The notes: generated by a model not told the origin, from the sequence alone. A DNA stretch of 32,000 bases from an uncultured Gammaproteobacteria bacterium (GCA_964522265.1 CAZFVS010000001.1:2400-34399); one strand, 5' to 3'. Positions 994 to 25,944 are shown, counted from the first letter of the stretch. A program made the numbers and translations.

Positions 994-2679
994 ATGGTTG
1001 GGTTTTTGTGGATTAAAAAACATGCTACAATTTCGCTTCTCTTGTTACTTTTAATCTTACTCATCCCTACCTTTTGGAGGATGCTCAAGCCCGGGATTTT
1101 TTCCATGCATGACTTCCATGTTTTTAGACTGTATGAATATGACAAATGTGTTGCAGATTTACAGATCCCCTGCAGGTGGGCGCCTGACTCCGCTTATGGA
1201 TACGGAGAACCGATGTTTAATTTTTATACCCAACTTCCCTATGCTTTTGGAGAAATATTCAGGTTCTTAGGTTTTTCAGTTATTGATTCTATCAAAGCCC
1301 TTTTTATCTCATCCCTTATTTTATCTGCCTTTGCGATGTTTCTTTTGGCAAAACAGTTTTGGGGAAATAATTTATCAGCACTAATTTCTGCCCTGATCTA
1401 TACGTATGCACCATATCGGGCAGTCGATGTTTGGGTAAGAGGTGCTTTGCCAGAAGCGCTAGCTTTCATTTTCTTCCCGCTTATTACTTATTATTTTAAT
1501 GATTATGTATTAAATAAAAGACTAAGGTCTCTTTTTCTGTTTGGCCTGGCTGTTTCAGGACTTGTTTTAACCCACAATCTTTCAATGCTAATGTTTTTCA
1601 TCTTCTTCAGTCTTTGGGCGATTTATTTTTTTACAAAATATAAAGCCTGGAATTTAATTCCAAAATTTATTCTGATTGGAATACTGAGTTTAGGAATAAG
1701 TGCTTTTTATATCTTACCCGTGGTTTTTGAAAGTAAACTGATAACTTTAACAGAAACGACACAAGGTTATTATGATTTTAAACTTCACTTTGTTACTTTA
1801 AAACAGCTTTTAATCTCAAGATATTGGGGGTATGGAGGATCGCTTTGGGGTAATGATGACAGGTTGAGTTTATCTGTAGGACAGATACAATGGATTTTGC
1901 CAATCCTGGTTGCACTAATTGTACTAATTAAAAAAAGACAAAGAAATTATCCGAGTTTTTTCTTTCTGTTAGGGATTGGTTGGTTTATGTTGTTTCTTAC
2001 ACACAATAAGTCGGTTTTATTTTGGGACGCAGTAAAGCCTTTAAGTTTTGTCCAGTTCCCCTGGAGATTTTTAGGTTCTGCAGTTTTTCTTTTTGCTTTC
2101 GCCTCAGGTGCAATATTTACATTATTTAAAAAAAGTTATTTCAACAAAATTCTTTTTTTAGTTATTGCAGCGTTGCTTATAAGTTTTAATGCATCCTTTT
2201 TCTTTGAAGATTTATGGTTTAAATTCAGTGATAAAGAATTTTTCAGCGGTAAAAATTACGAACAACAAGTGACATCAGCTATACATGACTTCTGGCCCAA
2301 AACAGGGGGGAAAGATGTTCCCTCTTCTTTTGCACCAAAAACAGGGACTTTTCTTGAAGGGATGGGGGATGTCAAATTAACAGAAAAAGCAAGCAATAGG
2401 CAATCGTATACTATTGATTCAGGAGGGTTGGGGGGAGTGGTGCAGTTTCCATTAGTTTATTTTCCGGGTTGGATCGGATCTTCCCCGAATCGCAATATTG
2501 ATCTTTTCCCCAGCGGCAAGCTAGGTTTAGCAACAGCAAAACTTAAGCCTCAGGAAAGTAAAATAAAATTAAAATTTTCCGATACACCAATAAGGACTGC
2601 AGGGAATTTTATATCTGAGTTTTCTGCAGGCCTTTTAATAGTTATCTTAATTTACTATAAAAGAAAAAAAGTAATATGA
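994..2679 (+). CDS. Polytopic membrane protein, putative GT-C glycosyltransferase (COG5617 / PTPS-related / YfhO-like resemblance)
   Basis: 561-aa ORF with many hydrophobic segments. The loop after TM1 (SMHDFHVFRLYEYDK...GYGEPMFNFY) resembles the acidic/His loop of these membrane families. The family call rests on motif memory only. Confidence 0.5.
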   Translation: MVGFLWIKKHATISLLLLLLILLIPTFWRMLKPGIFSMHDFHVFRLYEYDKCVADLQIPCRWAPDSAYGYGEPMFNFYTQLPYAFGEIFRFLGFSVIDSIKALFISSLILSAFAMFLLAKQFWGNNLSALISALIYTYAPYRAVDVWVRGALPEALAFIFFPLITYYFNDYVLNKRLRSLFLFGLAVSGLVLTHNLSMLMFFIFFSLWAIYFFTKYKAWNLIPKFILIGILSLGISAFYILPVVFESKLITLTETTQGYYDFKLHFVTLKQLLISRYWGYGGSLWGNDDRLSLSVGQIQWILPILVALIVLIKKRQRNYPSFFFLLGIGWFMLFLTHNKSVLFWDAVKPLSFVQFPWRFLGSAVFLFAFASGAIFTLFKKSYFNKILFLVIAALLISFNASFFFEDLWFKFSDKEFFSGKNYEQQVTSAIHDFWPKTGGKDVPSSFAPKTGTFLEGMGDVKLTEKASNRQSYTIDSGGLGGVVQFPLVYFPGWIGSSPNRNIDLFPSGKLGLATAKLKPQESKIKLKFSDTPIRTAGNFISEFSAGLLIVILIYYKRKKVI

Positions 2680-4292
2680 GAAAAAAATTGTTGATATTTT
2701 TTTTGATTATAATAATTGCTGTTTTTTTAAGGTTTTATAGATTGGATGAATTCCCTCCAAGTCTGAATTGGGATGAAATAAGCATAGGATATAATGCTTA
2801 CTCTATTTTAATGACAGGGAGAGACGAATGGGGGGAGTTTTTACCGTTATCATTTAGGGCATATGGAGACTATAAACTTCCGGGATATATTTACCTTGAT
2901 ACTTTTTTTATCAGGGCTTTTGGGTTAAATGAATGGGGGGTAAGATTGCCTTCAGCAATCTTAGGGCTTTGGATTGTAATTTTTATCTTTTTAATTGCTA
3001 AAAATTTGACAAATACAAACCTGGCGCTTTGGGTGATGTTTATCTCTGCAGTAACACCATGGCTTATTATTCTTTCAAGAATTGCCTTGGAAGCAAACCT
3101 GGCGCTTTTTTTTACAACAGCATCCCTTTACTTTTTGCTTAGGGGAATTAAGAAAAAATATTTTTTACCCATCGCTACCCTATTTTTAGGGCTGTCGCTA
3201 TTTTCTTATAACTCTTCAAGAGTAGTGGTGTTGCCATTGACTTTACTTGCAGGTATTTTATTTTGGCAGAGAATCAAGAATACAAAAGCATCTTTGGTGG
3301 CATTTACTGTACTGGCAATATTTTTTATTACAGCTTTTCCTTTGGCACTATTACAGGATTCTTCGGCAAGATATAAATGGACTACCATACTAGATGAGGG
3401 TGCAATCTCAAGAATTAATGAGTTACGCGGATCCGCTGCTTTACCTTCAGTTGTAGATAAACTGATTTACAACAAAATTACTTATTTTATACCCCAGGTG
3501 TTAGGGAATTATTTTTCGCACTTCAACCCCAACTTTTTATTTTTTAACGGAGGATCCAATTACCAATATTCTGTGCCCGGTTCAGGCCTGTTTCATATAA
3601 GTTTATTACCATTTTTAATATTAGGATTCTATCAAATTTTCCTAAAAAAAGAAAAATGGCAGTATTTTATTTTAGGATGGTTTCTTATTGCGCCACTGCC
3701 TGCTGCAATAACAAGGGATTCGCCCCATGCTCTTCGTTCGTTGCTGATGATCCCACCCTTTTTAATTATTTGTGTGTTTGGGATTAATGTTATAACACAT
3801 AACCTAAAACCTGTTTACGTAAAAGTGCTGCTTGCGATTTTTACCATAGTTTTAGTCTTTCAAACTGTACAGTTTTGGCAAAATTATATCGGTAATTATA
3901 CTAGGAGTTATTCCTGGTCATGGCAATATGGTTACAAAGAAACAATAAATTTCGTGAAACAAAATTATGGCAACTACTCAAAAGTATATTTTACAAAAAA
4001 GTATGGGGAACCACATGAGTTCATGTTGTTCTATCTCAAAATTGACCCTCAGTTTTTTAGAGACGGAGCTGTTCCTGTAAGATATAAAAAATCAGATTGG
4101 TATTGGGTAGATAGTTTTGGTAAATTTGAATTTATTAACGATTGGGAAGTAAAAGAAAGATTAAAAAAAGAGCCAAAAGAAAAAAGTTTGTTAGTGACGA
4201 GTCCTGGAAATTATCCAGCAGGAAGTAAGTTGATAAAAACAATAAACTTTTTAGATGATCAGCCCGCGTTTGATATAGTAGAAATAAAATGA
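2676..4292 (+). CDS. GT39 / PMT_2 (PMT-ArnT-like) GT-C glycosyltransferase, paralog 1
   Basis: ATGA overlap with the upstream gene. TM1 is followed by NWDEISIGYNAYS...GDYKLPGYIY (DE motif plus YKP-type motif), then about 11 TM segments and a soluble C-terminal domain ending FLDDQPAFDIVEIK. Confidence 0.8.
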   Translation: MRKKLLIFFLIIIIAVFLRFYRLDEFPPSLNWDEISIGYNAYSILMTGRDEWGEFLPLSFRAYGDYKLPGYIYLDTFFIRAFGLNEWGVRLPSAILGLWIVIFIFLIAKNLTNTNLALWVMFISAVTPWLIILSRIALEANLALFFTTASLYFLLRGIKKKYFLPIATLFLGLSLFSYNSSRVVVLPLTLLAGILFWQRIKNTKASLVAFTVLAIFFITAFPLALLQDSSARYKWTTILDEGAISRINELRGSAALPSVVDKLIYNKITYFIPQVLGNYFSHFNPNFLFFNGGSNYQYSVPGSGLFHISLLPFLILGFYQIFLKKEKWQYFILGWFLIAPLPAAITRDSPHALRSLLMIPPFLIICVFGINVITHNLKPVYVKVLLAIFTIVLVFQTVQFWQNYIGNYTRSYSWSWQYGYKETINFVKQNYGNYSKVYFTKKYGEPHEFMLFYLKIDPQFFRDGAVPVRYKKSDWYWVDSFGKFEFINDWEVKERLKKEPKEKSLLVTSPGNYPAGSKLIKTINFLDDQPAFDIVEIK

Positions 4293-6022
4293 AATTTTCA
4301 ATTTTCAATTTTCAATTTTCAATGCTGGTTTTGATCATAGTTTTGGCTGGGATACTGCGTCTTTGGAATATTTCATCGAATCCGCCTGGGCTTACATGGG
4401 ATGAGGCAGCAATTGGGTATAACGCTTATTCTTTACTTAAAACAGGTAGAGATGAATATGGGCAGATCTTACCGCTAAATTTTAAATCTTTTGGAGATTA
4501 TAAACCCGGAGTTTATATTTATTCTGATATTCCATTTATTGCACTCTTTGGTCTGAATGAATTGGCAGTTAGATTGCCTTCAGCAATTGCAGGGACGATG
4601 CTTGTTTTACTCGTTTATTTATTGATGATGGAACTTTTTAATAACAAAAATCTGGCACTATCCGCATCATTAATGTTGGCAATATCACCTTTGGCGATAC
4701 AGTTTTCTAGACCTGCGTTTGAGAGCAATCTGGCGGTTTTTCTAAATTGTTTAGGGATATTTTGTTTTGTTAAGGGATCAAAGAAGTCTAAACTTTTTAT
4801 ACTATCAGGTTTATTTTTTGGCCTTTCTTTATTTACATATCAGGCTTCCAGAATATTTATCCCCATACTACTTTTGGGATTGTTTCTAATATATAGAAAA
4901 AACCTTTCTTTAAAAAAAGATTTAAAAATTGGATTGGGGGTATTTATTTTATTTGCCCTGCTAGTGGCTGCCCAGATTTTTGTGCTGAAACAATCAGGCC
5001 GGCTTGAGGCGATGAACTATTTTGCATACAGGCGTTCTGATGAGCAAATAAACCAAATAGCAAAAGAAGACGGGTATCAAGTTTCAGATTACAAGTTTCA
5101 AATTTTGCATGGTGAATGGTTTGCCTCTTTTAAGGGTTTGGTTGAAAGATATTTGATCTATTTTTCTCCCAAGATGCTTTTTATTGATGGGGATTATAGT
5201 CCCAGGCACAGAGTTCCAGATCTGGGTGTTTTATATTATGTTTCAGTTTTATTTATTCCTTTGGGAATAATTTATCTTTGGCGGAAGAAAAAGCAGGGTA
5301 GCACTCTTGTTTTTTTTCTGCTGGCAATCTCCTCCATCCCTGCTGTTTTATCAAGGGATTTGATTAGTATGGTGAGGGCTTTAAATTTGCTTATTCCCTT
5401 TACAATTTTGGAAGGAGCAGGGTTATATTATCTTTTTCTAAACATTAAAAAATTTAATCGGTTCATTTTTATATCGGTGAGTCTGATCATATTTTTTCTA
5501 ATATTTGCAAATCTTGCAGTTTTTTTGGATCGTTATTTCATACATGCTCCTATAAAATATTCTCAAGGATGGTTATATGGGTATAAGGACTTGCTCGCGT
5601 TTCAGTGTGATCAATTATACTTCGCGCTCGCAAAACCTTGCCTTTTGCCTGAGGCAAAAGGTAAAGAAATTTTTTTCTCAAAAGAAAATTTATCAAAATA
5701 TGACAATGTTTTAATAACTGATGATTATGGGCAACCCTACATATATTATCTTTTCTATAATCAATATCCGCCGGTTGAATTTCAAAAGCAGGCAGTTTTA
5801 GTACAACCCGGTGTCGATGTGGGGACGATAAGAAAGATTGATAATATTGGGTTTCGTCATGTTTATTGGCCAAACGATAGAGGATTAAAAAACAGTCTGT
5901 TTATTGCGACAAAAGAAGAACTGCCGGATAAAGATATAATCCCCTTTCCGCAGTATAAAATTTTAAAGGATATTAATTTTTTAGACGGGCAACATGCATT
6001 TAGAGTTGTGGAGTCGGAATGA
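4289..6022 (+). CDS. GT39 / PMT_2 GT-C glycosyltransferase, paralog 2
   Basis: ATGA overlap. Motifs TWDEAAIGYNAYS...FGDYKPGVYIY; collinear with the genes on either side; C-terminus FLDGQHAFRVVESE. Codons 2-11 are encoded by a perfect 7-bp tandem repeat. Confidence 0.8.
   Translation: MKFSIFNFQFSMLVLIIVLAGILRLWNISSNPPGLTWDEAAIGYNAYSLLKTGRDEYGQILPLNFKSFGDYKPGVYIYSDIPFIALFGLNELAVRLPSAIAGTMLVLLVYLLMMELFNNKNLALSASLMLAISPLAIQFSRPAFESNLAVFLNCLGIFCFVKGSKKSKLFILSGLFFGLSLFTYQASRIFIPILLLGLFLIYRKNLSLKKDLKIGLGVFILFALLVAAQIFVLKQSGRLEAMNYFAYRRSDEQINQIAKEDGYQVSDYKFQILHGEWFASFKGLVERYLIYFSPKMLFIDGDYSPRHRVPDLGVLYYVSVLFIPLGIIYLWRKKKQGSTLVFFLLAISSIPAVLSRDLISMVRALNLLIPFTILEGAGLYYLFLNIKKFNRFIFISVSLIIFFLIFANLAVFLDRYFIHAPIKYSQGWLYGYKDLLAFQCDQLYFALAKPCLLPEAKGKEIFFSKENLSKYDNVLITDDYGQPYIYYLFYNQYPPVEFQKQAVLVQPGVDVGTIRKIDNIGFRHVYWPNDRGLKNSLFIATKEELPDKDIIPFPQYKILKDINFLDGQHAFRVVESE
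4293..4320. repeat. Perfect heptanucleotide tandem repeat (AATTTTC) x 4
   Basis: Read directly from the sequence: atgaAATTTTCAATTTTCAATTTTCAATTTTCaatg, lying between the ATG at 4289 and an in-frame ATG at 4322. Confidence 0.95.
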
Positions 6023-6026
6023 ACAC

Positions 6027-7655
6027 ATGAAATTTACAGTTTACAATTTAAAATTTACATTTCTGGTTTTGATTATTGTTTTAGCTGCTATTTTACGGCT
6101 GTGGAATTTGGGTGAGTATCCTGCGGGTTTTAATGCTGATGAGGCAGCAATAGGTTATAATGCCTACTCAATTTTACAAACAGGAAAAGATGAATATGGT
6201 ACGTCTTATCCTTTGGCTTTTAAATCGTTTGGTGATTATAAACCCGGTCTCTATTTCTATTTCGTTATGCCTTTTGTAGCGAAACTTGGTTTAAACGAAA
6301 TTGCAGTTAGGTTGCCGTCAGCTCTACTGGGTATTGCAACAGTCTTATTGATTTTTTTCCTGGCAAAAGAGATATTTAAAAATGAAATAACGGGTTTGTT
6401 TTCAGCATTTCTTTTAGCAATCTCCCCATGGCATCTGCATTTTTCGAGAGGTGGTTGGGAAAGCAATGGGGCAACATTTTTTATTACGCTTGGAGTGTTT
6501 CTTTGGCTGAAGGGTTTAACTAAGCCATTACTTATATTCTGGAGTTTATTTAGTTTCTTGATTTCTATGTATATGTACCAAAGTCCGAGATTAATAATCC
6601 CTTTATTTTTGGTGCTGGCTATTTTTCTATATAAGAATATTCTACGGAAAATTGTTAGAAAGGTGATAATTTTTATACCAATTCTTTTTATTTTATCTAT
6701 TCCACTTATCTTACAGTTTACATCAGGAGAGGGAGGAGCAAGGTTTAGCGGCTTATCATTTTTTGCAGATAAAGGCCCTTTATCCAGAATAGATGAGTTG
6801 AGAGGGGAGCACGATGATTTAAGCAATAAAGATGCAAAATTGTTGCATAATAAAATAACAGCTTATATACCTTCTCTTCTCGGACATTATTTGGACCATT
6901 TTTCAACCCAATTTTTATTCATCAACGGTGAAGAAGTTATCAGAAATAAGGTTCCCGAAACAGGGCAATTCTATCTTATTGAATCTATTTTTTTAATAGT
7001 AGGATTATTTTTTCTCATAAGAAGCCGTTTTGAAAATGCAAATTTGATTATTTTATGGATTTTAATTTCACCAGTTGCTTCGTCAATGACTTTTCAAACA
7101 CCTAACGCCTTAAGAGCGCTTTCTATGGTTGTTCCGATGACCGTGATGATGGGTTATGGACTAAGTAAAATTTTCAACATCCTTAGTAAAAATTTCAGAC
7201 TGCTATTTTTAGTAGGTTGTTTTTTATTTCTTACCTTTGAATTTATACACTATCTTGAAAACTACTATGTACATTATCCTAAAAGATATCCTTTGGCTTG
7301 GGAGTATGGATTCAAAAGTATGGTTTCTAAACTTGAAAAATACAAGGACCAATACAAAAAGGTAGTTATTACGGACCGTTACGATCAACCGTATATTCTA
7401 GTACTGTTTTATGAAAAATATAATCCTGCAAAATATCAACCTCAGGCAGTTTTAACCGAAAGAGATAAGTTTAATTTTGGTACAATCCGTTCATTTGATA
7501 AATATGAGTTCCATAAAATAGAACCGGACAAAATTAAAAATGCTAAAGACACCCTTTTTATAGTGACAGACAAGGATATGCCTAAGAATGCTGAAATCAT
7601 AGATCAGGTTGATTTTCCAAACGGAAAACCTGCTTTTATATTTTTTAAAACATGA
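6027..7655 (+). CDS. GT39 / PMT_2 GT-C glycosyltransferase, paralog 3
   Basis: I prefer the ATG at 6027 (MKFTVYNLKFTFLVL..., which matches the paralog 2 N-terminus MKFSIFNFQFSMLVL) over the track start at 5994, which overlaps the upstream gene. Motifs NADEAAIGYNAYS...FGDYKPGLYFY. Confidence 0.8.
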   Translation: MKFTVYNLKFTFLVLIIVLAAILRLWNLGEYPAGFNADEAAIGYNAYSILQTGKDEYGTSYPLAFKSFGDYKPGLYFYFVMPFVAKLGLNEIAVRLPSALLGIATVLLIFFLAKEIFKNEITGLFSAFLLAISPWHLHFSRGGWESNGATFFITLGVFLWLKGLTKPLLIFWSLFSFLISMYMYQSPRLIIPLFLVLAIFLYKNILRKIVRKVIIFIPILFILSIPLILQFTSGEGGARFSGLSFFADKGPLSRIDELRGEHDDLSNKDAKLLHNKITAYIPSLLGHYLDHFSTQFLFINGEEVIRNKVPETGQFYLIESIFLIVGLFFLIRSRFENANLIILWILISPVASSMTFQTPNALRALSMVVPMTVMMGYGLSKIFNILSKNFRLLFLVGCFLFLTFEFIHYLENYYVHYPKRYPLAWEYGFKSMVSKLEKYKDQYKKVVITDRYDQPYILVLFYEKYNPAKYQPQAVLTERDKFNFGTIRSFDKYEFHKIEPDKIKNAKDTLFIVTDKDMPKNAEIIDQVDFPNGKPAFIFFKT

Positions 7656-8512
7656 TTAAATTATCATTGGCATTGGCGACTTTTAATGAAGAAGACAATA
7701 TAGGAAATTGCCTTAAATCAGTAGAAGATTTAGTGGATGAAATAGTCATAGTTGATGGTGGTTCAACTGATAAAACAGTTGAAATCGCTAAAAATTATGG
7801 CGCTAGAGTATATATAACCGATAATCCTCCTATTTTTCACATCAACAAGCAAAAAGCGCTTGATTTAACGGCAGGAAGTTGGATTTTACAGCTTGATGCT
7901 GATGAAAGAGTAAGTGATAAACTTGCTATGGAAATAAAAAAAATTATCTCTATGACAAATCAAGAGATACAGGAATATCAGGATATCTTACCCAACAAAA
8001 GATTATTTATAGCTCACCAGCAACTAATTGACAAGAGAGATGGTAAAGTTGGAAGTGGTGAAGATGAATATACAGCATTTTTTATTCCTAGATTAAATTT
8101 TTTTCTGGGTAAATTTTTGCATTTTGGAGGAGCATATCCTGATGGAGTAATACGGCTTATTAAAAAAAATAAGGCTTATTTACCTTGTAAAAGCGTCCAT
8201 GAGCAATATGTAGTTACAGGACGGGTAGGGTGGTTGCAAAATGATTTACTTCATATGGCAGACCCAACCTTTGCAAGATATCTAAAAAGAAATAAGAGAT
8301 ATATTAATTTAATTGTAAATGAATTTGAAAGAGATAAGATAGAAAAAAATGTTCTTCAATTTATTAACTATTGCTTGATAAAACCATTATGGTGGTTTTT
8401 CTGGACACAGATAAGACACAAAGGAATTTTAGACGGTATCCCTGGTGTTATTTTTTCATTTTTTTCGGCACTGCGTTTTCCAAGAGCTTATATTAAGTAT
8501 CTAACGACATGA
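7652..8512 (+). CDS. GT2 (GT-A fold) glycosyltransferase
   Basis: N-terminal LSLALATFNEEDNIGNCLKSV...IVIVDGGSTDKT and a DxD-like LDADE; ATGA overlap at both ends. Confidence 0.8.
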   Translation: MIKLSLALATFNEEDNIGNCLKSVEDLVDEIVIVDGGSTDKTVEIAKNYGARVYITDNPPIFHINKQKALDLTAGSWILQLDADERVSDKLAMEIKKIISMTNQEIQEYQDILPNKRLFIAHQQLIDKRDGKVGSGEDEYTAFFIPRLNFFLGKFLHFGGAYPDGVIRLIKKNKAYLPCKSVHEQYVVTGRVGWLQNDLLHMADPTFARYLKRNKRYINLIVNEFERDKIEKNVLQFINYCLIKPLWWFFWTQIRHKGILDGIPGVIFSFFSALRFPRAYIKYLTT

Positions 8513-9558: not shown

Positions 9559-9560
9559 TA

Positions 9561-11006: not shown

Positions 11007-11010
11007 TTTT

Positions 11011-12159: not shown

Positions 12160-12199
12160 ATACTTGAGGGGATATGAAGTAAATGGTAATATTCTGCCT

Positions 12200-12878: not shown

Positions 12879-13238
12879 ATGCAGATTATTACTCAGTTTT
12901 TTACAATTGTTTTTACTGTTTTCGCTCTAAGCAGAGCATATTTGCGCTTTAAGGAGCGGAAATTATCATCCTTTGCTTTTATATTTTGGATTTTCGTATG
13001 GATAACAGGGACTGTGGCTATTTTTTTTCCTGATTTAACTACCAAGATAGCCAGGTTTGTCGGAATCGGTAGAGGTGTAGATATTGTCCTTTATGCCTCA
13101 ATTGTTATTATTTTTTATCTACTTTTTAGAATTTACATTAAAATTGAGGATACTCAAAGACAGATTACCCAAATCGCAAGAAAAATTGCCCTCCGCAGAG
13201 TGTTGAAAAGCAAGAAAAGAACTGCCGGAAAATCATGA
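12879..13238 (+). CDS. Small 3-TM membrane protein, DUF2304-like
   Basis: 119 aa with three hydrophobic helices, a GIGRGVDIVLYASIV motif and a basic C-terminal tail. It lies immediately after the GT2, which is the usual DUF2304 context. Confidence 0.6.
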   Translation: MQIITQFFTIVFTVFALSRAYLRFKERKLSSFAFIFWIFVWITGTVAIFFPDLTTKIARFVGIGRGVDIVLYASIVIIFYLLFRIYIKIEDTQRQITQIARKIALRRVLKSKKRTAGKS

Positions 13239-18909: not shown

Positions 18910-20186
18910 TGAATATTTTAATGCTCTCTGAATATTTTACGCCGTTTGATTTTGGAGGCTCAGAGTGGAGTACTTACTATTTAGCAAAAGGATTGGCCAA
19001 AAACGGAGTGCACATTACTATTCTAACTCCGAACTATGGAAAAGAGAAAAATAAAGAGTTTAAAGAAGGATTCCTAATATATCGACCTGCGTTTTATAAA
19101 AAAATTAATCAAAAAAAACAATTAACACCCTTTTGGTATACAAATTTATTATGGTTTTTTTGGAGCTCTTTTTTTACTATAAAATATTGCTTTCAAAATA
19201 AAGTAGACTTAATTCATGTACAAGGAAAATATTTTCTACTCGCAGCAATCCTGGCTAAATTAATTTTAAGAAAAAAAATAATTATAACTCTGAGAGACTA
19301 TATTATCTTATGCCCTCTAGGTATGTGTCTTTTGTATCAAAATAAATTATGTACTCCCCTGGAATTTATAAAAAATGATATTCCGAAACTGCTAAAAATT
19401 TACCATAAAGATAAAAATTTAGTCGTCAAATGCATCTTATATTTGGAGGCAATACGGTTATGGTTTATAAGCTTTTTTCATAAAAAGATATTAAAATATG
19501 CAGATATTATTATTGCAATAAGCAATATAGAAAAAAAAATCTACCAAAAACAGGGATTTAATAATATTTCTGTAATTTCTAATCCTTATTTATTTAAAAT
19601 CCTAAAGAAGGCCAGAAAAAAGAAAATAAATAATAAAATTGTATTTGCTGGAAGAATTACCCCCGGGAAAGGTGCAGATATTTTAATTAAGATAGCACCT
19701 ATTTTGATAAAAAAATTTAACAATGTAACCCTCTATTTTATTGGAGAAGGATTTTTAAAAAAGTATTTAATTAATGAATCAAGGATAAATAAATTTAAAT
19801 CACATGTAAAATTTTTAGGGCACATTGATCATAGTAGGCTAGAGGAGCATCTCAAAACAGCCAATTTAACAGTTATACCTTCTGTTTGGCCAGAACCATT
19901 TGGTCGGATTGCTCTCGAGTCTATAGGTGTAGGTACACCGATTGTAGTAAGCGACAGGTGCGGTGTATCTGAAAATATAATTGATAAAAGATGGGGTATA
20001 ATAAGTAGTCCTACAGAAACAGAACTACTAAAAAATATCAATCTAGCCCTGAAAAATCAAAATATAATGAGAAGTAATCTACAAAATGATTTTCTTCTAA
20101 TAAAGAATATTTGGTCGAATGATGTATACGATATGCACATAAGAATTTATAATCGATCAATAAAAAATACCTGCTCCTCAAAATGA
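18909..20186 (+). CDS. GT4 glycosyltransferase
   Basis: N-terminal GGSEWSTYYLAKGLAKNG and C-terminal PEPFGRIALESIGVGTPIVVSD (E-x7-E). The start overlaps the upstream stop (TAATG). Confidence 0.8.
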   Translation: MNILMLSEYFTPFDFGGSEWSTYYLAKGLAKNGVHITILTPNYGKEKNKEFKEGFLIYRPAFYKKINQKKQLTPFWYTNLLWFFWSSFFTIKYCFQNKVDLIHVQGKYFLLAAILAKLILRKKIIITLRDYIILCPLGMCLLYQNKLCTPLEFIKNDIPKLLKIYHKDKNLVVKCILYLEAIRLWFISFFHKKILKYADIIIAISNIEKKIYQKQGFNNISVISNPYLFKILKKARKKKINNKIVFAGRITPGKGADILIKIAPILIKKFNNVTLYFIGEGFLKKYLINESRINKFKSHVKFLGHIDHSRLEEHLKTANLTVIPSVWPEPFGRIALESIGVGTPIVVSDRCGVSENIIDKRWGIISSPTETELLKNINLALKNQNIMRSNLQNDFLLIKNIWSNDVYDMHIRIYNRSIKNTCSSK

Positions 20187-21265
20187 TCTTAGGTATATAT
20201 TTATCCATAGGTGATAGTTTATCTAATTTAGCAAATGTTGGACAGGATACACTATTTAAGAAATATTATCTAAGAAAATTCTCAAATGAATTTAAAGAGG
20301 TTTATATTTTTTCTTATAAAAAGGAGAAAATTCAAAACCTGCCTGAAAACGTAAAAATTATACCTAATAAATATAATTTACATCGGTATATTTATGCATG
20401 CTTACTTCCATTATTAAATTTTAAGTTTATCTACAAGTGTGATATTTTTAGGGCATATCATCTTTCGGGCACACCACCAGCAATATTAGGAAAAATTTTT
20501 TTAAATAAGCCTTTTGTCTTTAATTATGCATATAATTACAATGCCTTAGCTAAAATAGAGGGTCATATAATTCAAGCATATTTTTATAAATTAATTGAAC
20601 CACTTGCTATTTTCTTTTCATGCACTTTCTTTACTGCGAATAGAACTATTTATAAAAAATTTAAAAGTAAAAAAAATTTTTTTCTACCCAATGGAGTTGA
20701 TATAAATATTTTCAAACCTCAAAAAAAGAATATAAAAAATAAAACCCCGCTGGTTTTGTCGGTAGGAAGATTAGAATTACAAAAAAACTACAAAAATTTA
20801 ATTATTGCTATGAAGGGTATAAATGCAAAACTTTTAATAGTAGGTAAAGGAAGGTTATATAAACAACTGTACAGATTAGCGAGAAAAGAGAATGTAAAAC
20901 TACAGATAATAAAAAAAATTGATCATAGTAAAATTGCTGGAATATATAGAAAATCAGATATCTTTATTCTTCCATCTCTTTTAGAAGGCCATCCCAAAAC
21001 CCTTCTTGAAGCAATGTCAAGTGGAAAACCTGTCATAGGGACTGATGTTGAGGGGGTAAATGATTTAATTGAAAATAAAAAAAACGGCATACTTTGCAAT
21101 AAGAATATAAGCGATATCAATAATGCTTTAAGGTTGTTATTATATAATAAGAAACTGCAACTTAAATTATCAAAACGGGCAAGGGAAACGGCAGTGAGTA
21201 GATATAACATTAATTTACTTCTAGAAAAAGAATTAACAGTATTGATGGCTGCTTATGAGAAATAA
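20183..21265 (+). CDS. GT4 glycosyltransferase
   Basis: VGRLELQKN...LLEGHPKTLLEAMSSGKPVIGTD (E-x7-E); ATGA overlap upstream. Confidence 0.8.
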   Translation: MILGIYLSIGDSLSNLANVGQDTLFKKYYLRKFSNEFKEVYIFSYKKEKIQNLPENVKIIPNKYNLHRYIYACLLPLLNFKFIYKCDIFRAYHLSGTPPAILGKIFLNKPFVFNYAYNYNALAKIEGHIIQAYFYKLIEPLAIFFSCTFFTANRTIYKKFKSKKNFFLPNGVDINIFKPQKKNIKNKTPLVLSVGRLELQKNYKNLIIAMKGINAKLLIVGKGRLYKQLYRLARKENVKLQIIKKIDHSKIAGIYRKSDIFILPSLLEGHPKTLLEAMSSGKPVIGTDVEGVNDLIENKKNGILCNKNISDINNALRLLLYNKKLQLKLSKRARETAVSRYNINLLLEKELTVLMAAYEK

Positions 21266-22319
21266 AATTTTCTATATTTACAGAACCAAAAGAGAGCCTA
21301 ATTTAAATGCTGACAAAGAAGGATTAGAACCTGACCATATTCTATATGGACTCAATCATATTAATAAGATGGGTATAAAAGCTGAGTTCAGTGATATTGC
21401 TTACTCAAAATTTAACATACTTTATTGGATTTTCCTCCCGATGCAATATATTTTGATCAAAATGACATCCTTTGGATTCAAAATTGATCAAGCTATATTG
21501 CTTTATCCAAAAATTAAAAAGAATAAAATTCTTATTTCTACGGCTGATAGCGCTGGTTTACCAATCCTTTTATTTAAAAAAATGGGTTTAATAACTTCTA
21601 AAGTAATTTATATAAGTACCGGTTTAATAAATGAGCTAAAAAAAAGAAAACAAAATTCCTTGATAAAGTTTTATTATAATTTATTAAACTATGCAGATAG
21701 AATTATATGTCATTCAAAGGTAGAAAAGAAACTATTTCTAGAAAAAATCAGTATAAATAAAAATAAAATATACGTAGTTCCTTTTGGGATAGATTGGAAT
21801 TTTTTTAAGGGTCAAGTCAAAAGTCAAAATTATATCTTATCAGTAGGCAGAGATAGGTCGAGAGATTTTAAGTTACTCAAAGAGGTTGCAAAAATATTAA
21901 AAAAAGAAGCCTTCGTATTGGTAACGAGTAAACCAAATACAAAAAATATAAAATTTCCAACGAATGTAAGCGTCTATTATGATATTTCTTATATAGAGGT
22001 AAGGAAATTCTATAGGAAATCAAAATTAGTCTTTATTCCACTAAAAGAATTAGATAGGGCGGAAGGGCAAATAAGCTTTCTTGAGTCTATTGCTTCTGAG
22101 AAAAAAATAGTTATATCTAAAGTGACCGGAATTTATGATACTTATAAGAAAATCATAAACCATAAAAAGATCTTTTTTTACAAGCCGGGTGATTTAAACG
22201 GGGCAGTAAAAAAAATTAAAATGGCTTTGAAGCATGTTGACAGGAGTACAATGATAAATAAATTTTATTCCTCAGAAAGTTATGCAAAAAAAATTTTGAA
22301 AATAGCAAAAAAAACTTAA
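21255..22319 (+). CDS. GT-B fold glycosyltransferase, divergent GT1/GT4-like
   Basis: SVGRDRSRDFKLL... and a degenerate acidic motif RAEGQISFLESIASEKKIVISK. Overlaps the upstream gene by 11 nt. Confidence 0.55.
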   Translation: MRNKIFYIYRTKREPNLNADKEGLEPDHILYGLNHINKMGIKAEFSDIAYSKFNILYWIFLPMQYILIKMTSFGFKIDQAILLYPKIKKNKILISTADSAGLPILLFKKMGLITSKVIYISTGLINELKKRKQNSLIKFYYNLLNYADRIICHSKVEKKLFLEKISINKNKIYVVPFGIDWNFFKGQVKSQNYILSVGRDRSRDFKLLKEVAKILKKEAFVLVTSKPNTKNIKFPTNVSVYYDISYIEVRKFYRKSKLVFIPLKELDRAEGQISFLESIASEKKIVISKVTGIYDTYKKIINHKKIFFYKPGDLNGAVKKIKMALKHVDRSTMINKFYSSESYAKKILKIAKKT

Positions 22320-22326
22320 TTTACCA

Positions 22327-23901
22327 ATGCTGAATTTTTTTAAAAATCCAATATTCATATTAATATTAGTTGGGATATTTATTGGAGTATCTTTATTAGG
22401 ACATTTAAATTTAGGTACACCATCTATAGATTCGGCTACTTTTTTATATATAGCTAAAGAAATCACAAAAGGGAAAATTCCATACAAAGATATTTTTGAT
22501 CATAAGGTACCTCTTGTGTATTTTATTGATGTTGCGGGGTTGTTAATTAGCAAGCATTCTTTATTTGGAGTTTGGATGTTGGAATTCATATCACTTTTTG
22601 TTTCAGTAATCCTGAGTTTTTATTTGGTTAAAAAAATTTTTGGTCCCTTTCCAGCTTTTTTATCAACCCTCGCTTGGCTGAATATTTTCTTTAAATTATT
22701 AAATGGAGGCAATTTAACTGAAGAATATGCAATACCCTTTCAATTTGGGGGAATTTATCTTTTTTGGTTATCAGAAAATAAAGAGGATAAAAACAATAAT
22801 ATAACCTGGATAGTATTTGGAATATTATCCGCCTTAGTATTTTTTTTAAAACAAAATCTAATAGGAATATTCTTTATAATATGTATTATAGAATTTATAA
22901 AGGGAGTAAGGAATAAAAAATGGAATCATTTAATAAAACTTTTCAGGAATTTTTTTATTGGAAATCTATTAGTGTTTCTTCCGTTTATGCTTTATTTTAT
23001 AGTTAACGATGCTTTGAGCGATTTTTCCAACTTTGCTTTTAGGTATAATCTTTATTATTCAGGAAAAGCTTTTTCAAATTTTTTCAATGTTGTATTCAGC
23101 GGGCTCCAATTAATGTTATTTTCACCCCTTGGTTTTTTGGGACTTTTGGGGTGGTTTGATGTAGTAGTTGTTCTGCTGTATGGCTTTTATAGAAAAGAAC
23201 TTAAAGACAAAAAAAGTATTTTATTTTTTTTACTTCTTCTTTTACCGATAGAGTATTTGTTAGTAAGTACAAGCGGGAAAATCTATACACATTATTATAT
23301 AGTTTGGATTCCTGCAATGACTTTGCTTACGGGTTATATCATATATATGATACAGGCCTATTGGAAAAAAATGTGGTTTGGTCAAAAACAACATCGTGAT
23401 GTAATACTTTTTTTAGTACTACCCGTCATAATATTATGGATTTTTTGGCAAAACTTGGTTTCGTTCTATCGTGGATTAGAATCCATACGTAATCTGCGCT
23501 ATCAAAAATTAGAAATATCTAATTTTATTGACCATAATACTTCTTCGGATGACTATATTTTTATTTGGGGGGTTGGATCCACTATAAACTTTGATTCAAA
23601 CAGACGATCACCCTCCAGGTTTATTTACCAAACACCGCTATATATAAAGGGTTTTCAGAATCCGTCGATGTACTACGAATTACTATATGATTTAATAAAT
23701 AAAACCCCAGAGTATATTTTAGACGGAAATACTCAAAAAGATAAATTTAGACCAATTATTTGTAACAAACCATTTCGTATAGAAGATTACCACCCTGCTA
23801 TGATACCTCTTTCGGAAATAAAAATTGTTGAAAACTTTATTTGTAAAAATTATAAAATTATAGGTATAATTGATGGCTATAAAGTTTTAAAGAAGATATG
23901 A
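22327..23901 (+). CDS. Polytopic GT-C-like membrane glycosyltransferase (ArnT/PMT_2-like)
   Basis: The loop after TM1, SIDSATFLYIAKEITKGKIPYKDIFDHKVPLVYF, resembles the D...Y.D.FDHKPPL pattern of ArnT/PMT_2 enzymes. 524 aa with more than 10 TM segments and a soluble C-terminal domain. Confidence 0.55.
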   Translation: MLNFFKNPIFILILVGIFIGVSLLGHLNLGTPSIDSATFLYIAKEITKGKIPYKDIFDHKVPLVYFIDVAGLLISKHSLFGVWMLEFISLFVSVILSFYLVKKIFGPFPAFLSTLAWLNIFFKLLNGGNLTEEYAIPFQFGGIYLFWLSENKEDKNNNITWIVFGILSALVFFLKQNLIGIFFIICIIEFIKGVRNKKWNHLIKLFRNFFIGNLLVFLPFMLYFIVNDALSDFSNFAFRYNLYYSGKAFSNFFNVVFSGLQLMLFSPLGFLGLLGWFDVVVVLLYGFYRKELKDKKSILFFLLLLLPIEYLLVSTSGKIYTHYYIVWIPAMTLLTGYIIYMIQAYWKKMWFGQKQHRDVILFLVLPVIILWIFWQNLVSFYRGLESIRNLRYQKLEISNFIDHNTSSDDYIFIWGVGSTINFDSNRRSPSRFIYQTPLYIKGFQNPSMYYELLYDLINKTPEYILDGNTQKDKFRPIICNKPFRIEDYHPAMIPLSEIKIVENFICKNYKIIGIIDGYKVLKKI

Positions 23902-24950
23902 CTGTTTGTTATTTTGGATCCTACGAACCGCAATACCCAAGGAATGTAATTACCATGAAGGGATTTAAAGCGTTAGGTTGGGATATTATTGAATGCAACG
24001 ATCGCACGGGTGGTATCAAGCATTATTTAGGACTAATAAATCAGTTTGTCAAAGGTTGTAGAAAATCAAACTTGATATTTATAGGCGTTTTAGGACATTA
24101 TGATGTTCCTTTGGCATGGATTATGGCTAAGGCATTCAAAAAAAAAATCATATTTGATGCTTTTTATTCTGTTTATGATACTTACGTTGAGGATAGAAAA
24201 GCATATAAAAAATGGAGTTTGAATGCCCTAAGGTTTTATTTTTACGATTGGATCTCGGTTAGACTGGCAGATAAAGTAATACTGGATACCAATGAACAAA
24301 TAGAATATTTTATTAAAGAATTTCACTTATCTGGTAAAAAATTCTTTGAACTACCAGTTTGTGCAGATGACCAGATTTTTAAAAAGGGAAGCATTAAAAA
24401 ACATACCGTACCCACTATTGGTTTCTACGGCAGTTTTCTTCCTCTGCATGGAGTTAGTGTAATAGTTGAAGTAATGAACATACTTAGAAAAGACTCATTT
24501 CGGTGTTATTTATTAGGTTCAGGTCCAGGGTTAAAGGTTATTAAGAAAGAGGTCACCAATAGGAGATTAAAAGGTAAGATAAAATTTTATAAAAACTTAC
24601 CTTATTCAGATCTTCCGAAATTCTTTACAATGATTGATTTGTTTTTAGCAGGACCTTTTGGTAACACAAATAAAGCACAAAGGATATTGCTTGCAAAAAC
24701 AGTTGAGGCCCTATCTTTTGGGATTCCTACTGTAATAACAAAAACTCCGGCTTGTAAAAGGCTTATCGGTAAATATAAAAATAATGTTATTTGGGTTGAA
24801 AATAACAAACCAGATACTTTAACGAAAATAATTAAAGATTTCTTCAAGACATTTGATCAAAAAAATGCTCAATTTAAACAATCTAAAGATGACTTTCCGT
24901 TAAGTTTTTTGAATTTTACTAAAAAAATGAACGAAATTATCACTTATTAA
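23898..24950 (+). CDS. GT-B fold glycosyltransferase (divergent group-1 type)
   Basis: The N-terminus CYFGSYEPQYPRNVITMKGFKALGWDIIEC is the typical start of a GT1-like subfamily. The second Rossmann half is IGFYGSF...LLGSGPG; ATGA overlap upstream. Confidence 0.55.
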   Translation: MTVCYFGSYEPQYPRNVITMKGFKALGWDIIECNDRTGGIKHYLGLINQFVKGCRKSNLIFIGVLGHYDVPLAWIMAKAFKKKIIFDAFYSVYDTYVEDRKAYKKWSLNALRFYFYDWISVRLADKVILDTNEQIEYFIKEFHLSGKKFFELPVCADDQIFKKGSIKKHTVPTIGFYGSFLPLHGVSVIVEVMNILRKDSFRCYLLGSGPGLKVIKKEVTNRRLKGKIKFYKNLPYSDLPKFFTMIDLFLAGPFGNTNKAQRILLAKTVEALSFGIPTVITKTPACKRLIGKYKNNVIWVENNKPDTLTKIIKDFFKTFDQKNAQFKQSKDDFPLSFLNFTKKMNEIITY

Positions 24951-24951
24951 T

Positions 24952-25944
24952 ATGCAACAACTTTTATATTTAGTTCCATCAGCATCTTCGTATAAAAAAG
25001 CGATAGGAAATGCCTTTCTTCAACTTGGTTGGAAAGTTAAATATTTTGATTACAGAAAAGGTGACTTTCCCATTAGAGTCTATAGATTTCTACCTTTAAT
25101 CGGCGGTTTTGAGAAAGCCAAGACAGTTTTAGAGAATAGGATTATAGAAATAAACAAAGAATTAAAACCCGATTTAATTCTTACTGCAAAAGGAGAACTA
25201 TTAACGGAAAGAGTGATGAAAACTATAAAAAAATCCTGGAATATAACAGCTAATATATTTCCTGACTATTTAAACCACTGGGAGCTAATAAAAAAAATTT
25301 CTGCTTATTATGATTTCTTCTTTACTTTTGATAATGCCATAATAAAAAAATTAAAGAGAATTGGAAGGAAGAATGTATATTATATGCCGCAAGCAACCCA
25401 ACCAGAGAAGAATATAAAAAAAGGAAAAAAATATGATGTTTCATTTGTCGGAACATATAATAAATGGCGGGAAAATTATTTCACTGGATTGAGAAGTCTT
25501 GATTTTAATATTTGGGGGGATAAAAGATGGTTTAATTCCTCACTGAAAAAATATGTAAGGGGTGGAAGGATACCACTAAAAAGAATGAAGGAAATTATTA
25601 AAAAAAGTAGAATCAATATAAATGTTTTTTTTGATGATGAGACTCCAATGGAAGGAGTGAGTATTAGGCCGTATGAAATTACCGGCTCAGGAGGATTTTT
25701 GTTGACTCAATATGTTAAGGATTATGATAATGTTTTTTTAAATAAAAAAGAAATAGTTTATTTTAAAACTCCGGCGGAAATGAAAAGATATATTGAATTT
25801 TATCTCAAGAAAGATGATTTAAGAAACAAAATAGCTGAAAGAGGCTATGTAAGAACTTTAAAAGATCATACTTATGAAATTCGTATGAAACAAATGCTTA
25901 TAATTATAAATAAAGCCCGGAAAAAAGGATCATTTGATATCTGA
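24952..25944 (+). CDS. CgeB-like glycosyltransferase (Glyco_trans_1_2 / DUF3880-type)
   Basis: The C-terminal pattern VSIRPYEITGSGGFLLTQ...EIVYFKTPAEMKRYIEFYLKKDDLRNKIAERGY...HTYEIRMKQML matches the CgeB-family consensus (R.FE..G.G......e.v.f.s.eel...yyl...R..ia..g....HTy..R). Confidence 0.7.
   Translation: MQQLLYLVPSASSYKKAIGNAFLQLGWKVKYFDYRKGDFPIRVYRFLPLIGGFEKAKTVLENRIIEINKELKPDLILTAKGELLTERVMKTIKKSWNITANIFPDYLNHWELIKKISAYYDFFFTFDNAIIKKLKRIGRKNVYYMPQATQPEKNIKKGKKYDVSFVGTYNKWRENYFTGLRSLDFNIWGDKRWFNSSLKKYVRGGRIPLKRMKEIIKKSRININVFFDDETPMEGVSIRPYEITGSGGFLLTQYVKDYDNVFLNKKEIVYFKTPAEMKRYIEFYLKKDDLRNKIAERGYVRTLKDHTYEIRMKQMLIIINKARKKGSFDI

Follow-up and report, generated by a model that had tools for sequence, protein, structure and literature searches.

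In the three-component scheme, which describes the Gtr, Gac and pentofuranose systems, a polyprenyl-phosphate sugar synthase is combined with a flippase and a glycosyltransferase (GT) of the GT-C fold (PMC11127046). The GlcNAc-P-undecaprenol synthase of Streptococcus pyogenes, GacI, is found in a complex with the DUF2304 protein GacJ, by which it is strongly stimulated, and Rv3632, a DUF2304 protein of Mycobacterium tuberculosis, stimulates PpgS (10.1101/180810). Purified Agl23 of Haloarcula translocates a lipid-linked oligosaccharide (PMC11182771). Here, we describe a large glycosylation operon in a stretch of 32,000 nucleotides recorded under the title uncultured Gammaproteobacteria bacterium (GCA_964522265.1, CAZFVS010000001.1:2400-34399; the whole stretch is called the window below, and positions are counted from its first nucleotide). 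Seven genes for predicted GT-C enzymes are combined in this operon with 12 cytoplasmic glycosyltransferase modules and a putative synthase of polyprenyl-phosphate sugars.

Our best reading of the sequence comparisons places the host among the Microgenomates (candidate phyla radiation, CPR, or Patescibacteria), as a Daviesbacteria-like bacterium from groundwater with a tiny genome. The CPR bacteria are mostly uncultured and host-attached, with genomes of ~1 Mb, and to our knowledge the composition of their envelopes is essentially undescribed. A search of the accessible literature on this type of locus (CPR, Patescibacteria or Microgenomates together with GT-C) returned nothing relevant, which suggests, though weakly, that the locus type is previously undescribed.

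In this work, family searches, structure prediction and comparison with related loci were combined to reconstruct the pathway encoded in the window. All 26 open reading frames (ORFs) of the window, designated g00 to g25 (Table 1), were scanned with Pfam and most of them with NCBIfam, and 30 loci of relatives, denoted by L and a number, were retrieved when species-representative genomes were searched with g08. With a probability of about 0.6, we propose a hybrid pathway, in which a lipid-linked glycan would be built in the cytoplasm and then glycosylated outside the membrane by several GT-Cs using donors derived from g09 and g10, the flippase and any phosphoglycosyltransferase (PGT) being encoded elsewhere. 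Every component family is already known, and the locus is an unusually large version of known cell-surface sugar building, not new machinery. What is unusual is the presence of seven GT-Cs of five families in one operon, the conservation of its core across the Microgenomates, the natural GT2-GT-C fusions, the lack of a PGT at any locus examined and the absence of a flippase in this clade.

GT-C glycosyltransferases of the operon

Seven large polytopic proteins with an acidic motif after the first transmembrane helix had been listed in the first-pass annotation of the window, and all seven motifs were located in the first loop. Directly past the first hydrophobic segment lie HDFH at position 39 of g01, NWDE at 31 of g02, TWDE at 36 of g03, NADE at 36 of g04, NDDFFH at 27 of g07, NFDG at 60 of g08 and SIDS at 33 of g18. 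By hydropathy, the number of hydrophobic segments in each of these proteins is approximately 10 or higher. Within the respective families, the acidic residues are conserved: D40 of g01 is invariant in 40 aligned sequences and D35 of g18 in 24, D38/E39 are retained in at least 85% of the 74 members of the g02-g04 family, D62 of g08 in at least 90% of 30 sequences, and D28/D29 of g07 in at least 90% of 120 sequences.

The proteins g02, g03 and g04 are full-length paralogs sharing 32-35% identity (32-34% for g02 with the other two). All three score over the cutoff of 22.7 bits for the PMT family (PF02366; Table 1), and no MIR domain was found in their Pfam scans. Models for particular functions were matched less well: g03 reached 29.9 bits with the NCBIfam equivalog model of ArnT against a cutoff of 567, its top sequence match in the PDB being ArnT as well (5ezm, E=0.016), and the Agl23 model TIGR03663 gave 33.9, 50.6 and 40.1 bits for g02, g03 and g04, respectively, all under the cutoff of 126.25. 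The PIG-V match of g08 spans profile positions 45-253 of 443. For g07, 203 homologs were found, many with PF13231 and some named ArnT-like. The g18 family is smaller, with 27 homologs detected, among which PF27757 and PF13231 matches occur, and its profile matches ArnT by sequence (E=0.003). The protein g01 itself has no Pfam match at E<=0.01; many of its homologs carry precomputed, often weak, matches to PF10131 and PF09586. Sequence searches of the PDB with g01, alone or as a profile, gave nothing meaningful, and for this protein structure comparison alone was informative.

The AlphaFold2 models of both g01 and g18 are helical bundles, with a predicted local distance difference test score (pLDDT) of 90 and a predicted TM-score (pTM) of 0.91 for g01, and values of 89.6 and 0.90 for g18. 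In Foldseek comparisons with the PDB, the top 27 matches of the g01 model are all GT-C enzymes (AftD, PglB, AglB, Pmt4, STT3, AftA, ArnT, Emb and DPY19; E-values down to 4e-4, TM-scores of 0.37-0.45), with AftD as the best structural match. The same is true of the top 32 matches of the g18 model (STT3, DPY19, PglB, AglB, ArnT, AftA, ALG12 and Emb; E-values down to 5e-7), where the TM-score with ArnT is 0.61.

Because of the Pfam matches to PMT/PMT_2 and PIG-V, the Foldseek results for g01 and g18, the PMT_2 matches of homologs and the conserved aspartate of loop 1, all seven polytopic proteins are predicted to be GT-C glycosyltransferases. No similarity was detectable among g01, g07, g08 and g18 or between them and g02-g04, which gives five unrelated GT-C families. 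A Wzy, O-antigen ligase or MurJ identity was considered for each of the seven proteins and rejected, since GT-C enzymes account for all family matches and for the best-ranking structural matches, as the first-pass annotation had expected. Its description of the operon as dominated by GT-Cs was an overstatement: they account for seven of 21 genes and stand alongside 12 modules of the GT-A or GT-B fold.

The position of g07 between g06 and g08 is found in the window alone and not in the closest relatives (L001/L005 and L030/L035), and a g07-like gene lies downstream of g08 in five more distant loci. This arrangement looks like shuffling or insertion within a conserved core.

Predicted donor synthase and natural fusions

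The best NCBIfam match of g09 is PpgS, the mycobacterial polyprenyl-phospho-GalNAc synthase (a full-length match of 141.5 bits against an equivalog cutoff of 370), followed by AglJ and then by dolichyl-phosphate hexose transferase. Its best matches in the PDB are the Pyrococcus DPMS (5mlz, 2e-14) and ArnC. The gene g10 begins 1 nt past g09. Because g09 matches polyprenyl-phosphate sugar synthases and g10 belongs to DUF2304, the two genes are predicted to encode a pair of the GacI/GacJ or PpgS/Rv3632 type. A Ppm1/DPM1-type synthase feeding the GT-Cs had been suggested before, and g09 with its partner takes this place. The GT2 enzyme g05 was also considered as a Dpm1-type synthase and rejected, its nearest relatives being GmaR and SunS, not DPMS, GtrB or ArnC.

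Synthase and GT-C domains are joined in natural fusions among the relatives. An 822-aa protein encoded at L035:2467-4935 consists of a GT2 domain and a GT-C of the g01 family (38% identical to g01), and the GT2 domain has its best PDB matches with ArnC (1e-18), GtrB (2e-17) and DPMS (4e-15). P0064 is a second fusion of a GT2 with a g01-family GT-C. By the Rosetta stone principle, the two fusions point to a functional link between synthase and GT-C. Use of polyprenyl-phosphate sugars by the GT-Cs on the outer face of the membrane is supported indirectly, through the adjacent g09/g10 pair and through these fusions. Two GT-Cs may also be joined to each other: a 916-aa protein encoded at L024:8360-11110 combines a PTPS_related-like GT-C with a g08-like GT-C.

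Initiation and export genes

The Pfam and NCBIfam scans gave no matches to PGT, Wzx, Wzy, GtrA or ABC families among the 26 ORFs of the window; this covers both PGT families (PF00953 and PF02397) and the ABC_tran plus ABC2_membrane pair, and a tblastn search of the window with the Wzx of L010 found nothing. In L001 and L035, the 10 kb preceding the g01 ortholog likewise contain no PGT, Wzx, Wzy or ABC genes, and none were found downstream in L005 and L030 (~10 kb past the g08 ortholog), in L036 (~6 kb past the g18 ortholog) and in the 6 kb of the window past g20. In two close relatives, the ~30 kb covered in each are free of PGT, Wzx, Wzy, GtrA and ABC exporter genes. Among the 121 flanking ORFs examined in 22 loci, no PGT family was matched by two or more.

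A Wzx-type flippase (PF01943/PF13440) is encoded in nine more distant orthologous loci of the Microgenomates, mostly directly 3' of the PIG-V-like gene. Five of these flippases were confirmed by Pfam (L008:11116-12372, L010:11182-12429, L011:11156-12436, L021:8991-11017 and L033:13313-15373), and BLAST orthologs are present in four further loci. A g07-like GT-C gene separates the PIG-V-like gene from Wzx in L033; in the other four Pfam-confirmed loci Wzx follows directly. The next gene after Wzx encodes an ABC-2 permease in L021 and L033, and ABC-2/ABC_tran pairs are present in three of the Wzx-bearing loci. In the clade of the window, the position held elsewhere by Wzx is taken by the GT2/DUF2304 pair.

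Because nine orthologous Microgenomates loci carry Wzx, the absence of the flippase appears to be specific to this lineage, and, judged by gene content, no lineage examined has a PGT in this type of locus. The first-pass annotation had reported no recognisable initiation or export genes. This stands for the window and for ~30 kb of each of the two close relatives; what does not carry over to the locus type is the missing flippase, given the Wzx genes and the three ABC-2 exporters of the orthologous loci. A standard PGT with a Wzx/Wzy or ABC set, the adjacent presence of which had been named as the mark of an ordinary O-antigen locus, was found neither in the window nor in the flanks of L001, L005, L030, L035 and L036.

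Proposed pathway and alternative explanations

In the hybrid pathway, a sugar, perhaps an N-acetylhexosamine, would be loaded by g09 and g10 onto undecaprenyl (polyprenyl) phosphate at the cytoplasmic face. The GT4 and GT2 enzymes would assemble a lipid-linked oligo- or polysaccharide, which would also be methylated and would probably contain heptose and phosphodiester-linked substituents, the latter added by the TagF-like g21 and g22. A flippase encoded elsewhere, the counterpart of which in other Microgenomates would be the Wzx of the operon itself, would then flip both the donor and the glycan. On the outer face, the GT-Cs would add or extend sugars, the linkage or acceptor differing from one GT-C to the next. 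The overall logic would be that of a multiplied three-component system (Gtr, GacIJKL or CsbB-YfhO). Candidates for the acceptor are a wall polymer, a lipoglycan and a surface protein. The earlier proposal that the operon builds an envelope glycoconjugate largely by extracytoplasmic transfer is retained in part: the GT-Cs and the donor synthase were confirmed, but the predominance of extracytoplasmic steps cannot be read from the sequence, and the GT4 enzymes and TagF-like proteins speak for a sizeable lipid-linked phase in the cytoplasm.

Several points weigh against the hybrid pathway. The proteins are known here from sequence and predicted structure alone, and on their own sequences g07 and g18 score under the Pfam cutoff for PMT_2. 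The PpgS score of g09 (141 against 370) places this protein at the level of a class, with no sugar named. It is presumed that the products of the GT4s and the reactions of the GT-Cs meet in a single molecule, and that the flippase and any initiating PGT, which are not in the window, are encoded elsewhere is an assumption. The nearness of g05 to GmaR (1e-13) and SunS, its best PDB matches and both protein or peptide glycosyltransferases, also fits glycosylation of proteins.

Dedicated protein O-glycosylation is the alternative that survives best, and we regard it as unlikely. The PMT-family GT-Cs (g02-g04 and others) would move sugars from polyprenyl phosphate onto Ser/Thr residues of S-layer, pilin or other surface proteins, and no PGT would be needed for these steps. 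Direct protein O-glycosylation has precedents in actinobacterial Pmt/Ppm1 and in a GT39 of Caldicellulosiruptor, and the protein glycosylation of a Firmicute has reportedly been traced to a single GT39. The scores of g02-g04 over the PF02366 cutoff together with the retained DE motif, the nearest solved relatives of g05 and the lack of a PGT at the locus are all consistent with such a role, but the MIR domain is absent and no gene for a candidate acceptor protein was found in the window or the relatives. At least nine cytoplasmic GT4 modules and the TagF-like enzymes would be left unexplained, and the PMT_2 and ArnT-like Pfam matches cover lipid and polysaccharide acceptors equally.

A lipoglycan of the type of phosphatidylinositol mannosides, lipomannan and lipoarabinomannan (PIM/LM/LAM), or of glycosylphosphatidylinositol (GPI), is slightly less probable again. 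In that case, g06 would act like PimA or PIG-A on a glycerolipid at the inner face, and after flipping the GT-Cs including g08 would extend the product with polyprenyl-phosphate sugars, again with no need of a PGT. The GT2-GT4-GT-C trio mirrors DPM1, PIG-A and PIG-V, or Ppm1, PimA and PimE, and the corresponding GT2-GT4-PIG-V-like trio is conserved in ~25 loci. The NCBIfam scan gave sub-threshold, full-length matches of g06 to models of diacylglycerol glucosyltransferase and of the lipoteichoic acid (LTA) anchor GT, and PGT families are absent from the window and from the families matched by at least two flanking ORFs of relatives. Every GT4 match is generic, however, and far under the equivalog cutoffs, the match of g08 covers only part of the PIG-V profile, and the TagF-like genes and the Wzx of orthologous loci suit undecaprenyl-linked polymers better.

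Still more doubtful is a route of the archaeal kind with neither PGT nor Wzx, in which the GT2/DUF2304 pair would initiate on polyprenyl monophosphate as AglJ does on dolichyl phosphate, GT4 and GT2 enzymes would extend the glycan, a PMT_2-like paralog would flip it in the manner of Haloarcula Agl23, and a GT-C would transfer it en bloc. AglJ is the second-best NCBIfam match of g09, g02-g04 have sub-threshold Agl23 matches of 34 to 51 bits to a family whose purified member moves lipid-linked oligosaccharide (PMC11182771), g01 and g18 resemble PglB, AglB and STT3 structurally as much as ArnT, and PGT and Wzx were not found in ~30 kb in three lineages. Against this, the Agl23 scores are far under the cutoff of 126 and no better than those for PMT/PMT_2, the catalytic DE motif is kept in all three paralogs, Wzx is present at the same locus in other Microgenomates, and the lack of PGT and Wzx refers to the locus and the flanks of relatives alone. 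The related proposition that the clade assembles an envelope glycoconjugate without PGT and Wzx/ABC exporter, by a polyprenyl-monophosphate chemistry resembling that of eukaryotes or archaea, with a GacI/GacJ-type GT2 initiating, GT4s extending, an Agl23-like paralog of the PMT_2 fold flipping and five GT-C families finishing and transferring the product outside, is given as little credence as the lipoglycan.

An ordinary O-antigen, exopolysaccharide (EPS) or teichoic acid locus, with the GT-Cs as minor decorators and a standard PGT plus Wzx/Wzy or ABC exporter just beyond the window, is highly improbable, since the TagF-like gene downstream, the ABC-2/ABC_tran pairs in 3 and Wzx in 9 related loci, and an O-antigen-like low G+C content of the variable 3' half are outweighed by flanks of three lineages devoid of PGT, Wzx, Wzy and ABC genes, by the lack of PGT families in the survey of flanking ORFs and by 7 to 9 GT-Cs per locus, which is far from ordinary.

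Gene content and organization of the operon

The operon was previously described as 21 plus-strand genes from nt 2 to 25944, joined by nine ATGA overlaps and one TAATG. The listing of ORFs agrees with 21 co-directional genes over this range, the first of them (g00) being truncated by the window edge, with its called start at 62 in a frame open back to nt 2, and a check of the junctions reproduced the ATGA overlaps at 2676, 4289, 7652, 8509, 13235, 16145, 18139, 20183 and 23898 and the TAATG overlap at 18909. The longest-ORF calls overlap their neighbours by up to 61 nt in places. When starts backed by orthologs are chosen for g04, g07 and g09 (Table 1), the gaps range from -20 to +40 nt, which corrects the range of 0-35 nt given before. 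Sigma-70-like promoter and intrinsic-terminator-like sites showed no enrichment over shuffled controls and thus neither subdivide nor delimit the operon, and no tRNA or Rfam elements were found in the window. Nothing in the sequence argues against a single long translationally coupled unit.

The limits of 994-25944 drawn in the first-pass annotation were too narrow. Beyond g00, which is cut at the window edge, the relatives continue upstream with genes for NDP-heptose synthesis and further GT-Cs, and two TagF-like genes downstream are kept with the operon in L036. In the best reading, an operon of >35 kb for the biosynthesis of an envelope glycan is represented in the window by its central and 3' portions.

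Table 1. Predicted genes of the window, with positions, strand, predicted product and main evidence.
Gene	Position	Strand	Predicted product	Main evidence
g00	2..958	+	SDR-type NDP-sugar epimerase/dehydratase, 5'-truncated by window edge	Pfam Epimerase 88 bits; GDP_Man_Dehyd
g01	994..2679	+	GT-C, YfhO/PTPS-related-like; C-terminal beta-sandwich, then terminal transmembrane helix	homologs with PF10131/PF09586; AlphaFold2 model
g02	2676..4292	+	GT-C, PMT/PMT_2 paralog 1	PF13231 50.7 bits, PF02366 40.7 bits, both over cutoff
g03	4289..6022	+	GT-C, PMT/PMT_2 paralog 2	PF13231 56.2 bits, PF02366 53.4 bits
g04	5994..7655 (likely start 6027)	+	GT-C, PMT/PMT_2 paralog 3	PF13231 34.8 bits, PF02366 27.7 bits; orthologs 536-542 aa
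g05	7652..8512	+	GT2, not Dpm1 class; conserved core	PF00535 60.7 bits
g06	8509..9558	+	GT4; conserved core	PF00534 94.5 bits
g07	9498..11006 (likely start 9561)	+	GT-C, divergent PMT_2	PMT_2 18.9 bits, under cutoff
g08	11011..12159	+	GT-C, PIG-V-like (Mannosyl_trans2); anchor of conserved core	PF04188 34.9 bits (cutoff 22.4)
g09	12152..12877 (likely start 12200)	+	GT2 polyprenyl-phosphate sugar synthase, GacI/PpgS/DPMS class	PF00535 92.3 bits
g10	12879..13238	+	DUF2304 small membrane protein, GacJ/Rv3632-type synthase activator	PF10066 89.3 bits (cutoff 25.5)
g11	13235..15457	+	tandem double GT4, 740 aa	two Glycos_transf_1 stretches, total 238.6 bits
g12	15438..16148	+	GT2, EpsE/TuaG-like	PF00535 119.6 bits; NCBIfam EpsE 157.6 bits, under cutoff
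g13	16145..18142	+	SDR epimerase/dehydratase-GT4 fusion	Epimerase 150.6 bits, Glycos_transf_1 121.3 bits
g14	18139..18909	+	S-adenosylmethionine (SAM)-dependent methyltransferase	Methyltransf_31 83.7 bits
g15	18909..20186	+	GT4	PF00534 101 bits
g16	20183..21265	+	GT4	PF00534 122.8 bits
g17	21255..22319	+	probable GT-B/GT4-like, weak	Glyco_transf_4 28.3 bits, Glyco_trans_1_4 23.4 bits, both slightly under cutoff
g18	22327..23901	+	GT-C, rare family, ArnT/STT3-like fold	PMT_2 20.6 bits; AlphaFold2 model
g19	23898..24950	+	GT4	PF00534 64.9 bits
g20	24952..25944	+	GT-B-like (Glyco_trans_1_2 + DUF3880; WaaS/CpsH-like), final operon gene	PF13524 100.9 bits; NCBIfam WaaS/CpsH 50.8 bits (cutoff 60)
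g21	25930..27327 (likely start 27279)	-	probable distant TagF-like transferase, convergent	weak profile links
g22	27340..28665	+	TagF-like CDP-glycerol/polyol-phosphate transferase	PF04464 57 bits (cutoff 22.1)
g23-g25	28685-31930	-	transketolase-like fusion, KDPG/KHG-type aldolase, PseF-like cytidylyltransferase	family matches
SDR, short-chain dehydrogenase/reductase; NDP, nucleoside diphosphate; KDPG/KHG, 2-keto-3-deoxy-6-phosphogluconate/2-keto-4-hydroxyglutarate.

The cytoplasmic modules comprise three GT2 (g05, g09 and g12), the GT4 modules of g06, g11 (two), g13, g15, g16, g19 and, weakly, g17, and the GT-B-like g20. This tally of 12 agrees with the approximate number given in the first annotation. 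No equivalog-level NCBIfam assignment was obtained for any GT4 or GT2, and the specificities for sugar and linkage are therefore not nameable. The operon couples these modules and the GT-Cs with two SDR sugar-modifying domains and a methyltransferase. The g00 ortholog of L001 has 372 aa and lies directly downstream of the heptose-pathway genes. The fusion of epimerase and GT4 in g13 is particular to this genome; the orthologs in L005, L030 and L036 have 371-372 aa and contain the GT4 part alone.

The G+C content ranges from 27 to 39% over the whole window, with 27-31% in the 3' half (g11-g20) against 34-36% in the 5' half. The genes with the least conservation among the relatives lie where the G+C content dips to 27-28%, at ~19000-23000.

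Flanking genes

In the relatives, a set of heptose genes precedes the operon (L001:3849-9965 and L035:4932-9876), including genes for an HddA-like kinase (185 bits), a GmhA-like isomerase (twice), a GmhB-like phosphatase and an HddC/ManC-like nucleotidyltransferase; the corresponding region of the host is beyond the window. The rest of the upstream 10 kb in these two relatives contains more PMT_2 GT-Cs, the GT2-GT-C fusion, oxidoreductases and DUF218 proteins. The upstream set would constitute the pathway of NDP-D-glycero-D-manno-heptose, and because these genes lie directly upstream in the relatives, the glycan probably contains heptose.

Downstream of the operon, g21 is convergent with g20 and overlaps it by 15 nt. 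Alignments with its homologs begin at residue 17, in agreement with the later start given in Table 1. No Pfam match was found for g21, which belongs to a family of 1152 representatives lacking a Pfam model. Glyphos_transf was matched by two of the 40 homologs tested, and a comparison of the g21 and g22 profiles by hhalign gave a probability of 57% (E=1e-4); BLASTP detected no similarity between the two proteins, and neither has a sequence match in the PDB. Orthologs of both genes, 68% (g21) and 43% (g22) identical, lie beside the operon in L036. We consider g21 to be probably a distant TagF-like transferase. The two TagF-like genes suggest phosphodiester-linked substituents and a cytoplasmic phase of lipid-linked assembly. 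Of the wall teichoic acid pathway, the TagF-type polyol-phosphate transferase is represented by g22, and tagO, tagA, tagB and tagGH were not found.

By the longest ORFs, g21 and g22 are separated by 12 nt, and strong promoter-like sites facing both directions are located at 27299-27349. In the last group of genes, g23 is a fused transketolase-like protein (356 bits), g24 an aldolase of the KDPG/KHG type, and g25 a PseF-like cytidylyltransferase (83 bits, under the cutoff). Judged by these matches, g23-g25 could provide either an acid sugar activated with CMP or CDP or sedoheptulose-7-phosphate for the heptose pathway.

Host and conservation of the locus

The closest named relative is a metagenome-assembled genome (MAG) of Candidatus Daviesbacteria, in which the contig is syntenic (L001, L005) and the g01 ortholog is 80% identical. 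The informatively titled loci among the 30 g08 loci belong to CPR of the Microgenomates type (Daviesbacteria, Woesebacteria, Gottesmanbacteria and 'Patescibacteria group'). Approximately 12 syntenic MAG records of the third party annotation (TPA) kind are titled 'uncultured Gammaproteobacteria' (including L010, L014, L016, L019, L021-L023, L029, L030, L032 and L033), and L025 and L028 are titled 'uncultured Pseudomonadales'. Such titles on Microgenomates-type loci look like taxonomic mislabelling.

A common core is present in ~25 loci. It consists of two to four tandem PMT_2 GT-Cs, a g05-like GT2, a g06-like GT4 and a g08-like GT-C of the PIG-V type, often followed by a further GT2. Orthologs of g05 (43-88% identity) were found in ~25 loci and those of g06 (31-73%) in ~24. 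The 3' half (g11-g20) is kept in the closest relatives L005 and L030 alone and is complete in L036, which contains g08 through g20 together with g21 and g22 at 43-70% identity. By this comparison, the locus is made up of a 5' module conserved across the class and a more variable 3' module. Because of its lower G+C content and its presence in few relatives, the 3' half probably specifies a strain- or clade-specific glycan structure. The number of GT-Cs per locus is seven in the window and at least nine in L035/L030.

Near the orthologs of g05 and g06, and apparently between them, a short-chain dehydrogenase is encoded in five loci (L010:8301-9029, L015:8252-8959, L016:8207-8944, L021:7071-7778 and L031:4188-4910). 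An IS200-like transposase is encoded in the same region at L018:3351-4031 and L019:8182-8865. The window contains neither of the two. That the dehydrogenase might epimerise a lipid-linked sugar, by analogy with DprE2, is only a guess.

Implications for the envelope of Microgenomates

Contigs among the g08 loci include two of 0.98 and 1.10 Mb. For genomes of ~1 Mb, ~3-4% of the genome given to one glycan operon is a large investment, and a GT-C-rich core common to Daviesbacteria, Woesebacteria and Gottesmanbacteria suggests that a surface glycoconjugate plays a central part in their biology. Its possible roles include, for example, attachment, phage or host recognition and envelope integrity. 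The g09/g10 pair, the five GT-C families and the natural GT2-GT-C fusions are testable targets. In addition, the loci with and without Wzx offer a natural comparison on how polyprenyl-phosphate sugars cross the membrane, a question that is open even in model systems.

Comparison with known systems

Among single enzymes, the closest described counterparts are PMT (GT39) and ArnT (GT83). The paralogs g02-g04 score over the PMT/PMT_2 cutoffs and keep the DE motif, and ArnT is the top sequence match of solved structure for g03 and g18. They differ in the lack of a MIR domain, in the ArnT equivalog score (29.9 against 567) and in their tandem triplication inside an operon of the polysaccharide type.

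In the haloarchaeal Agl pathway of N-glycosylation (AglJ, AglG/I/E, AglR, AglB, AglD/AglS and Agl22/Agl23), a Dpm1-like GT2 initiates on polyprenyl monophosphate without a PGT, and a GT-C of the PMT_2 type adds the final sugar outside. The weak Agl23 matches of g02-g04 and the AglJ match of g09 resemble this pathway; in contrast, no score reaches its family cutoff, a sequence signature of AglB/STT3 was not detected, and the host is a bacterium.

The mycobacterial system of PpgS (Rv3631), Rv3632 and Rv3779, with the assembly of arabinogalactan and LAM (Ppm1, PimE, Emb and Aft), is similar in the best family of g09, which is PpgS, and in the DUF2304 protein g10, which corresponds to Rv3632. It also shares the logic of multiple GT-Cs fed by polyprenyl-phosphate sugars, and the g01 model is nearest to AftD. 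By sequence, however, no GT-C of the window is a member of the Emb, Aft or PimE families, no arabinose donor genes of the DprE or UbiA type are present in the window, and this operon belongs to a CPR bacterium of ~1 Mb genome size and not to an actinobacterium.

The three-component systems (GtrA/GtrB/GtrC of Shigella and Salmonella, GacI-GacJ-GacK-GacL of S. pyogenes, and CsbB/GtcA/YfhO of Bacillus and Listeria) have in common with this locus the GT2 synthase g09, the DUF2304 partner g10 and GT-Cs with an acidic residue in loop 1, and the orthologous Microgenomates loci add a flippase of the Wzx family, as in GacK. They have one GT-C where seven of five families are encoded here, and the locus of this lineage has no flippase gene. 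Whereas the three-component systems are small accessory cassettes that decorate a separately encoded polymer, the corresponding genes are here embedded with 12 cytoplasmic glycosyltransferase modules in one operon.

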